A stretch of DNA of 21,701 nt from a virus (taxonomy: Duplodnaviria > Heunggongvirae > Uroviricota > Caudoviricetes). The DNA is taken from IMG/VR virus record IMGVR_UViG_2671180921_000015, positions 1 to 21,701 of that record; one strand, written 5' to 3'. Made by a program: the position numbers and the translations under genes. The notes under the pieces were generated by a model. It saw only the letters and a list, made by a program, of their open reading frames with translations. It made no database searches and was not told where the DNA came from. The first letter of the stretch is position 1; each line of letters opens with the position of its first letter. Shown here piece by piece: positions 503-585 of the stretch.

Positions 503-585
503 ACGGGTCCTTCCTGAGCGGGTTATTGCACGGGCATTGCGCGCTCGCGGTGTTTCGCCAGCTATAAATTTTCAATTTTGCGTCC
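503..585. other. Cohesive end site (cosQ/cosN-like), lambda-type
   Basis: 503-512 ACGGGTCCTT matches my recollection of the lambda right-end sequence ACGGGTCCTTTCC. 546-580 CGCGGTGTTTCGCCAGCTATAAATTTTCAATTTTG parallels the lambda left-end CGCGGGTTTTCGCTATTTATGAAAATTTTCC that follows the 12-nt cohesive end. The predicted nicking region is about 532-546 (GGGCATTGCGCGCT). It lies about 250 bp upstream of the small terminase gene, as in lambda. Confidence 0.55.

Follow-up and report, generated by a model that had tools for sequence, protein, structure and literature searches.

The non-coding stretch in front of the terminase genes of this viral DNA resembles the genome ends of phage lambda, which raises the question of whether the virion chromosome is cut there and, if so, between which bases. 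The window, that is, the whole stretch of DNA analyzed (21,701 nucleotides), holds this non-coding stretch at 479–790, with a G+C content of 48% against 59% window-wide. Judging from sequence comparison, we consider it highly likely that positions 504–775 form a complete cos site, belonging to a lambdoid prophage with a lambda-type head module and a contractile tail.

Lambda-like sequence and the terminase gene neighborhood

A preliminary description of this DNA had matched two strings, ACGGGTCCTT and CGCGGTGTTTCGCCAGCTATAAATTTTCAATTTTG, to the lambda genome ends and had proposed GGGCATTGCGCGCT as the intervening cohesive end. An exact check located them at 503–512, 546–580, and 532–545 of the window, respectively, and the lambda ends given there agree with the junction in J02459 (...TTTACGGGTCCTTTCCGGTGATCCGACAGGTTACG|GGGCGGCGACCT|CGCGGGTTTTCGCTATTTATGAAAATTTTCCGG). 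A 105-nt probe covering the lambda cosQ, cosN, and I2 was then aligned locally to both strands of the whole window. The single best alignment fell on the flagged interval, at 503–573 with a score of 22, a value reached by none of 200 dinucleotide-preserving shuffles (15.7 ± 1.4, maximum 20), and the likeness of 503–512 and 546–580 to the lambda ends was thus confirmed. This match, the best in the window and above all shuffles, is one reason for reading the locus as a complete cos site. The heptamer GGGTCCT and the core CATTGCGCGC each occur once in the 21.7 kb.

The genes on both sides were consistent with such a site. The frame of the gene on the left (2–478, + strand) is open from base 2 and cut by the window start; its product resembles phrog_1924 ("minor tail protein", E = 4e-28) over the C-terminal two thirds of that family and gave no match in Pfam. 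In the closest complete E. coli prophage, which is 93% identical over window 1–3400, a 221-aa homolog occupies the same place after holin, endolysin, and Rz-like genes, as in the lambda gene order.

On the right, a Nu1-like small terminase subunit (TerS) is encoded at 791–1387 (+ strand), starting at GTG 791 or ATG 800, with a GGAGG ribosome-binding site at 779–783, 7 nt before GTG 791. Among PHROGs, phrog_57 is the top family for this protein (E = 1.6e-26), as it is for lambda Nu1 (1.3e-76) and for the TerS of Serratia phage vB_SspM_BZS1 (1.2e-27). The pairwise similarity to Nu1 is weak (BLASTP E = 0.013), and hhalign of the TerS family against Nu1 aligned residues 2–46 with 4–51 (E = 2.2e-4, probability 45%). 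The N-terminus gave a weak HTH_17 hit (20.4 bits, under the Pfam cut-off of 27), and a single-sequence AlphaFold model showed an H-H-beta-beta-H order at low confidence (pLDDT 54). A PDB sequence search with TerS alone returned only a chance match, the omega subunit of RNA polymerase (E = 0.07), and a PDB search with a 12-sequence TerS family profile returned no match.

The large subunit (TerL) is encoded at 1341–3320 (+ strand) and belongs to the gpA family (PF05876, 1.6e-76; PF20454, 1.6e-82); it would provide both nuclease and motor. Its identity to lambda gpA is 35% over 595 aa (E = 4e-111), and its identity to the TerL of BZS1 and of Citrobacter phage phiNP is 73%. The TerL gene is followed by gpW, a lambda-family portal, an S49 protease, gpD- and gpE-like proteins, and then a contractile tail. 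The presence of a gpA-family TerL, a Nu1-family TerS, gpW, the portal, and the gpD- and gpE-like proteins directly downstream argues for a complete cos. The gene order also fits a lambda-type cos with the ORF ending at 478 as the last gene of the right end, and TerS then TerL as the first genes of the left end, as had been proposed.

Mapped ends of a Serratia relative and the predicted cohesive end

Megablast of window 1–3400 against phage records gave no match, and relatives among these records were found by blastn and tblastn only. The sole "distant" blastn match of 440–800 among 50,697 phage records was phiNP, covering window 502–583; a tblastn search of the phage records added BZS1 (MT843275), and this cos type was present in just these two phages there. 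The linear BZS1 record begins GCATTGCGCGCC|GCGTTCTGCGTCTAGCTATC..., annotated "cosL, 1..12", and ends ...AATGGGTCCTTCCCTGCACTTTTGTAAAGCACGG (also quoted as ...GGGTCCTTCCCTGCACTTTTGTAAAGCACGG), so that its termini split the motif as CACGG^GCATTGCGCGCC^GCG. PhageTerm analysis of MiSeq virion reads gave 5′ cohesive ends with the overhang GCATTGCGCGCC for BZS1, and comparison of the virion ends with a PCR product spanning the prophage cos confirmed one 12-bp cos (PMC7556043). As the BZS1 termini map inside the same motif, the flagged motif corresponds to a physical end of a homologous virion chromosome, and the earlier proposal that the window crosses the genome ends can be upheld by this homology. 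The site is therefore very probably a lambda-architecture cos of the BZS1/phiNP lineage, whose ends have already been mapped in the Serratia relative. Among the searchable literature, only the BZS1 paper gives the cosN core in a phage context, as a 12-mer, and the phiNP paper makes no mention of cos or terminase (PMC6456863).

A TerL-based search of IMG/VR recovered 80 loci with 68–96% amino-acid identity, about 73 of which carry the element upstream of TerS. The order is TGGGTCCTTCC, 17–19 variable nt, CACGGGCATTGCGCGC(C)GCG, CTAGCTAT, and TTTTGAAATTTG, a box of the type TTTTGA(A/T)TTTG. The window falls in this BZS1/phiNP-type family, with the core CATTGCGCGC between GGGTCCTTCC and CTAGCTAT and a TerL at least about 70% identical downstream. 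The pattern GGGTCCTTCC-N12-22-GGGCATTGCGCG was found in 92 species-representative genomes across Proteobacteria, including Enterobacterales (Serratia, Xenorhabdus, Photorhabdus, Yersinia, Edwardsiella, Salmonella, Citrobacter, and others), Burkholderiales, Chromobacterium, Xanthomonadales, and Alphaproteobacteria. Conservation of the element across hundreds of loci, together with the virion ends mapped in BZS1, is a further reason to favor a complete cos. None of the IMG/VR contigs starts at the nick itself (L064 and L061 start nearby only), and a metagenome scan with the cosQ-to-nick sequence of the window yielded a single contig, which runs through the site.

The heptamer GGGTCCT (505–511, + strand), which we take to be the conserved 7-bp cosQ, lies inside the conserved block (T/C)GGGTCCTTCC at 504–514 and is near-invariant across related loci. 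It precedes the predicted top-strand nick by 22 nt in the window; for the identical heptamer, this distance is 23 nt in lambda, N15, and Gifsy-1 and 24 nt in BZS1. Among 145 unique sequences, this spacing was 24, 23, 22, and 21 nt in 104, 31, 9, and 1 cases, respectively. On the other side of cosN, a conserved spacer in the position of lambda I2 (546–580, + strand) aligns with CGCGGGTTTTCGCTATTTATGAAAATTTTC (lambda bp 13–45) and contains the boxes CCAGCTAT (558–565) and TTTTCAATTTTG (569–580). The order and spacing of the subsites are thus correct relative to lambda, N15, and Gifsy-1, which also argues for a complete cos. The 7-bp cosQ is highly conserved and needed for termination (PMC4669245).

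The putative nicking site cosN (about 529–549, + strand) reads CACGG^GCATTGCGCGCT^CGCG, and its core (G/a/t)CATTG(C/t)GCGC shows essentially no variation among loci retrieved through TerL alone. We infer a top-strand nick at G533^G534 because BZS1, where the 5′ end was mapped, has exactly the same left half-site, CACGG^GCATTG. The right nick would then fall 12 nt further on, at T545^C546. Independently, the same position follows from the lambda alignment, lambda CT^CGCGGGTTTTCGC pairing with window CT^CGCGGTGTTTCGC in the context CT^CGCGG(G/T)(T/G)TTTCGC. From the homology to BZS1 and the lambda right junction, the cohesive end is probably the exact 12-mer GCATTGCGCGCT at 534–545 (+ strand, 5′ extension), with an uncertainty of about 1 bp in the position of the right nick. 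Of the cohesive end previously placed at 532–546 (as a 14-mer, 532–545), the right edge at T545^C546 stood in both the BZS1 and lambda alignments, whereas the left edge lay 2 nt too far left and included two extra Gs. The statement that this end differs from that of lambda was correct, as GCATTGCGCGCT and GGGCGGCGACCT are identical at 6 of 12 positions.

The cos could also be functional with nicks elsewhere, giving 13 nt (GCATTGCGCGCTC, 534–546), a shifted 12-mer (CATTGCGCGCTC, 535–546), or the 14-mer at 532–545. In the family majority, both strands carry ACG-N^G at the nick (top CACGG^G, bottom AACGC^G), while the right half-site of the window is shifted by 1 bp relative to this two-fold symmetry and its best match to the bottom-strand consensus (ACGC^G) lies 1 bp further right. 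There, ACCGC^G is closer to the family AACGC^G than is the CCGCG^A of the predicted nick. Moreover, the window, L005–L012, and L010 have 22 nt from cosQ to the nick, against 24 in most family members, and one extra bp to the right of GCGCG, or −2 bp and +1 bp compared with BZS1. The overhang could therefore be 13 nt or shifted by 1, as the subfamily spacing differs and the bottom half-site is displaced. As for the 14-mer, GGGC, the start of the lambda overhang, is found at 532–535, but a 14-nt overhang has no precedent in the gpA-type group. Against all these positions, the left half-site is the one whose 5′ end was mapped in BZS1, the gpA-type terminases characterized in the cited papers all cut 12 bp apart, and the 12-nt solution reproduces the lambda right junction T^CGCGG exactly. 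Hence, we regard nicks at any of these other positions as unlikely.

With the 12-mer as the preferred end, overhang positions 11–12 (bases 544–545) are CT or AG, varying among prophages with identical TerS, and this dinucleotide sits between 4-bp inverted CGCG arms.

The predicted cosB repeats and a swapped cassette of putative specificity

The preliminary description gave the site an extent of 503–585. This interval does hold the cosQ, cosN, and I2-like parts, but the site is much larger, with a predicted cosB downstream that had gone unmentioned and consists of 13 GTCCC(A/G) motifs at 582–772. These 191 bp hold 13 of the 33 GTCCCR sites in the window, against 0.18 expected from the density elsewhere in it (Poisson P of about 2e-20).

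The proximal element (580–598, + strand), in the position of lambda R3, is a direct GTCCCA pair at 582–587 and 590–595, that is, bp 49–62 counted from overhang base 1, with the first motif at bp 49. BZS1 carries GGTAACAGGTAACA at bp 48–61. R3 spans bp 50–65 in lambda and bp 48–60 in N15, and its distance to cosN is critical (PMC9026076). The proximal element is followed by a 65-bp spacer (596–660) whose length is conserved but whose sequence is not. The spacer measured 64–65 bp in 13 of 15 distinct GTCCCA-type spacers and 70–71 bp in L025 and L078, in each of which a degenerate proximal motif had been left out of the count. A constant length despite diverged sequence suggests a geometric constraint, for example a bend or loop. 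The window spacer has one weak IHF-like site at 600–612 on the minus strand (AAACAAAAAATTA, one mismatch to WATCAANNNNTTR); in the spacers of relatives, the IHF consensus was not consistently present and its position was not conserved.

The distal cluster (661–772) contains 11 GTCCC(A/G) motifs, nine direct (661, 686, 694, 702, 710, 718, 730, 759, and 767) and two inverted (672 and 740). It includes a perfect tandem of 5 × ATGTCCCA at 684–723, 2.1 × TGTCCCGG at 758–774, and palindromes at 661–677 and 730–745. Among assemblies with identical TerS, the ATGTCCCA tandem is present in 2, 4, 5, or 6 copies. It is conceivable, though we would not expect it, that the cosB of this lineage is a dense, evolvable array of 10–13 very short predicted TerS sites and not a set of three lambda-style R sites. 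If the polymorphisms in tandem and overhang were functional, natural populations would tune the frequency of packaging start, and mismatched cohesive ends would be routine after recombination or co-induction, which would parallel in nature the mismatch experiments engineered with lambda/N15.

The relatives fell into two cosB classes, with GGTAACA (58 sequences) or GTCCCA (16 sequences) repeats, and the repeat class matched the class of the TerS N-terminus in 74 of 74 scored sequences. GGTAACA-class proteins begin with MNQSDFAKLHGVSRKTVTxWKARGW and GTCCCA-class proteins with M(N/T)ISDYAKHxxVNRKTI(S/T)RWIKAG. In the GGTAACA class, three repeats lie just before the TerS start codon and 5–7 inside terS, where they encode Gly-Asn-x-x repeats. 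This covariation of the cosB motif type with the TerS N-terminus is another argument for a complete cos. The boxes CTAGCTAT and TTTTGA(A/T)TTTG are kept in both classes, and we therefore associate the I2-like box with TerL and cosN rather than with TerS specificity.

An ORF at 578–1387 with a TTG start was also considered as an N-terminally extended TerS. It was rejected, as the extension is the repeat array read in frame (ATGTCCCA giving Met-Ser-Gln/His), the GGTAACA-type homologs begin at the conserved MNQS..., and the ribosome-binding site lies 7 nt before GTG 791.

Compared with IMG/VR locus L009, the window is 99.1% identical at 1–572 (five mismatches) and 94.8% identical at 1109–3400, while 573–1108 has no nucleotide similarity to L009, which carries GGTAACA repeats and the other class of TerS N-terminus. 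This comparison identifies 573–1108 (+ strand, 536 bp) as a swapped cassette of predicted packaging specificity, comprising cosB and roughly the first 106 TerS residues, because L009 differs in both while the flanks are 95–99% identical. The TerS C-terminus lies outside the cassette and travels with TerL; in lambda, the TerS C-terminus contacts TerL. The assembly contig L310 breaks exactly at 573; this break was discarded as a candidate virion end, as it coincides with the mosaic boundary.

Could the motifs be a relic in a defective or cryptic prophage, kept without a packaging role? The window continues across cos and hence represents a prophage or circular form and not virion DNA, it lacks the left part of the prophage, where the regulatory and replication genes lie, and a near match was found in only 10 of 5426 complete E. 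coli genomes. However, every ORF for head, tail, and terminase proteins in the window is intact and full-length compared with profiles, and every cos subsite fits the family consensus. A look-up of identical TerS retrieved 48 blocks of a public assembly index, covering genome-assembly contigs only, with the cos intact in 9 of the 9 loci examined. In addition, BZS1 and phiNP were deposited as phage records, the BZS1 DNA coming from free phage particles. A relic is thus improbable, and we infer an active prophage in which the flagged site most likely serves as a working cos.

It is very improbable that the region has no packaging role at all and is a late-operon regulatory leader (promoter or hairpin attenuators from inverted GTCCCA pairs) or a headful pac site, since the two weak sigma-70-like sites and the terminator-like hairpins with T-rich tails at 659–679 and 728–747 are countered by the facts that these hairpins are inverted repeat copies with weak 8-bp stems of only 4 G-C pairs, absent from GGTAACA-type relatives, and that Rfam finds nothing in 300–1000, while the dense short repeats beside terS, which recall a multi-site pac such as that of SPP1, are countered by a gpA-type TerL and by the unique cohesive ends of BZS1, mapped at the homologous site.

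Predicted packaging scheme and comparison with known systems

By analogy with lambda, the predicted helix-turn-helix in the TerS N-terminus would bind the GTCCC(A/G) motifs of cosB, both the proximal pair at bp 49–62 and the 11 copies located 65 bp further on, and would thereby position the gpA-type TerL on cosN. TerL would then introduce staggered nicks, at G533^G534 in the top strand and opposite T545^C546 in the bottom strand, leaving 12-nt 5′ ends GCATTGCGCGCT. Packaging would proceed rightward, the TerS/TerL end entering first, and cosQ (505–511) and cosN of the following cos in the concatemer would direct the terminating cut. The top strand of the virion chromosome would run from 534 round to 533, and the bottom strand would carry the complementary 12-nt 5′ extension (534–545). 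The predicted virion map of the prophage thus starts with the left end at 534 and TerS and closes with the gene ending at 478, with the sticky-end prediction corrected.

Beyond this prophage, one cosQ–cosN design (GGGTCCTTCC, 16–19 nt, GGGCATTGCGCG) is common to prophages of several proteobacterial orders. The two cosB/TerS classes with their clean cassette boundary offer a natural system for studies of packaging specificity, and the specificity classes would help predict helper phages able to mobilize cos-bearing islands. The lambda paradigm is extended to another lineage, and its current understanding is unchanged.

The closest mapped system is BZS1, which shares with the window the cosQ block GGGTCCTTCC, the cosN core CACGG^GCATTGCGCGC, the boxes CTAGCTAT and TTTTGAAATTTG, a lambda-type head with a contractile tail, and a TerL with the 73% identity given above. 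The two differ at overhang base 12 (T in the window, C in BZS1), in the cosQ-to-nick distance (22 nt in the window, 24 nt in BZS1), and by one extra bp to the right of cosN in the window. Their cosB repeats are also distinct, since BZS1 has GGTAACA, with 3 copies upstream and 5–6 inside terS, whereas the window has 13 GTCCCA-type motifs, all upstream of terS; the TerS N-terminal domains belong to different classes.

The likeness to lambda itself concerns the GGGTCCT cosQ (22 nt from the nick in the window, 23 nt in lambda), the right junction T^CGCGG(G/T)(T/G)TTTCGC, a first predicted TerS site at about bp 49–50 with a second group beyond a spacer, and TerS and TerL immediately after. In contrast to the three 16-bp R sites of lambda, the window cosB is made of many 6–8-bp motifs, including a perfect 8-bp tandem; it also has no clear IHF site, and the tail module is of the myovirus type. 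In the "lambda-like" cohesive-end group, N15 differs from lambda at 2 of 12 positions and Gifsy-1 at 3 of 12 (PMC4669245); the window, with an overhang only 6/12 identical to GGGCGGCGACCT, falls outside this group in the strict sense.

The swapped cassette has its own counterpart, as lambda and 21 share the same cosQ and cosN, with those of N15 near-identical, and carry alternative cosB and TerS N-termini on a segment of about 600 bp (PMC4669245). Like these specificity modules, the window cassette is exchanged between phages that are otherwise 95–99% identical, but GTCCCA and GGTAACA are unrelated to the R sequences of lambda, 21, and N15. Finally, the GGTAACA-type relatives, in which terS contains a second repeat cluster at a distance of about 200 bp from the first, resemble N15 with its rR2, from which the window differs in having all of its repeats upstream of terS.

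The last gene before cos and variation in the predicted cohesive end

The last gene before the cos site (window 2-478) matches phrog_1924, labelled 'minor tail protein', with an E value of 4e-28. It is placed after the lysis genes, distant from the tail module, and its product carries a strongly basic stretch, KKAKKVAKTRKRRKRSPNGTRAPRKKNRPPK; the annotation as a minor tail protein looks doubtful.

Over window 1-572, the stretch differs from the related IMG/VR locus L009 by five mismatches in all, two of which are adjacent (CT vs AG at 544-545) and lie inside the sequence CGCG-CT-CGCG at 540-549. 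At the sequence level, this difference amounts to inverting the dinucleotide between its 4-bp inverted CGCG arms. The two alleles were both found in assemblies encoding a TerS identical to that of the window, with CT at loci L303, L305-L307, and L309 and AG at L302, L304, and L308. Because bases 544-545 fall at positions 11-12 in the predicted overhang, cohesive ends could mismatch in populations that mix the CT and AG alleles.

An unusual cos geometry was observed in three contigs of the GGTAACA type. L136 (IMGVR_UViG_3300047322_000040, 1-73) has GGGTCCT just 12 nt 5′ of GCATTGCGCGCC, L101 carries GGGGGCACTGCGCGCGCGCG, and the start of contig L108 reads GGGGCGGGAGCG..., where the CATTGCGCG core is not recognisable. 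These may be further cosN variants joined to the same cosB.

The repeat array of cosB and its reading frame

The window carries five tandem units of ATGTCCCA (684-723) and a doublet of TGTCCCGG (758-774). The copy number of ATGTCCCA differs across the public assemblies with a window-identical TerS (L302-L310), where 2, 4, 5, or 6 units were found, and the E. coli NZ_CP141863 prophage has 2 units. In L310 (GCA_043907485.1, contig DAZTOI010000075.1), TGTCCCGG is present once and not as a doublet. This contig starts exactly at 573 in window coordinates, where the cassette comprising cosB and the TerS N-terminal part has its left boundary. Such a break in the assembly would be expected in a genome with two related prophages, since the sequence left of 573 would be common to both.

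The TerS frame is open in the 5′ direction through the repeat array (578-790, + strand, from the TTG at 578), and ATGTCCCA is translated in this frame as Met-Ser-Gln/His repeats. ORF finders can therefore return artificially long TerS calls (269 aa in the window and 215-244 aa in GTCCCA-type relatives). A terminator scan also identified 8-bp hairpins formed by inverted GTCCCA pairs and followed by T-rich tracts (659-679 and 728-747). These hairpins probably arise incidentally from palindromic TerS sites; attenuation of read-through into terS is a possible role.

Enterotoxin genes in a related prophage

In the closest complete E. coli prophage (L002, NZ_CP141863), two enterotoxin genes, one of the enterotoxin A family and one for a heat-labile enterotoxin IIA B chain (16947-18092), are located between the holin and endolysin genes ~2.4 kb upstream of the prophage cos. 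The counterpart of this region in the present phage falls outside the window.

Intragenic repeats in the GGTAACA class

The terS coding sequence of this class contains a second group of five to seven GGTAACA repeats, spaced by ~12 bp, for example at ~240-320 in L204 (BZS1) and ~2175-2255 in the related locus L028. Once translated, the cluster forms a linker of Gly-Asn-x-x repeats. The sites at which TerS likely binds would therefore constrain the sequence of the TerS protein itself in this class. The intragenic cluster recalls the accessory rR2 site that N15 has within its TerS gene.
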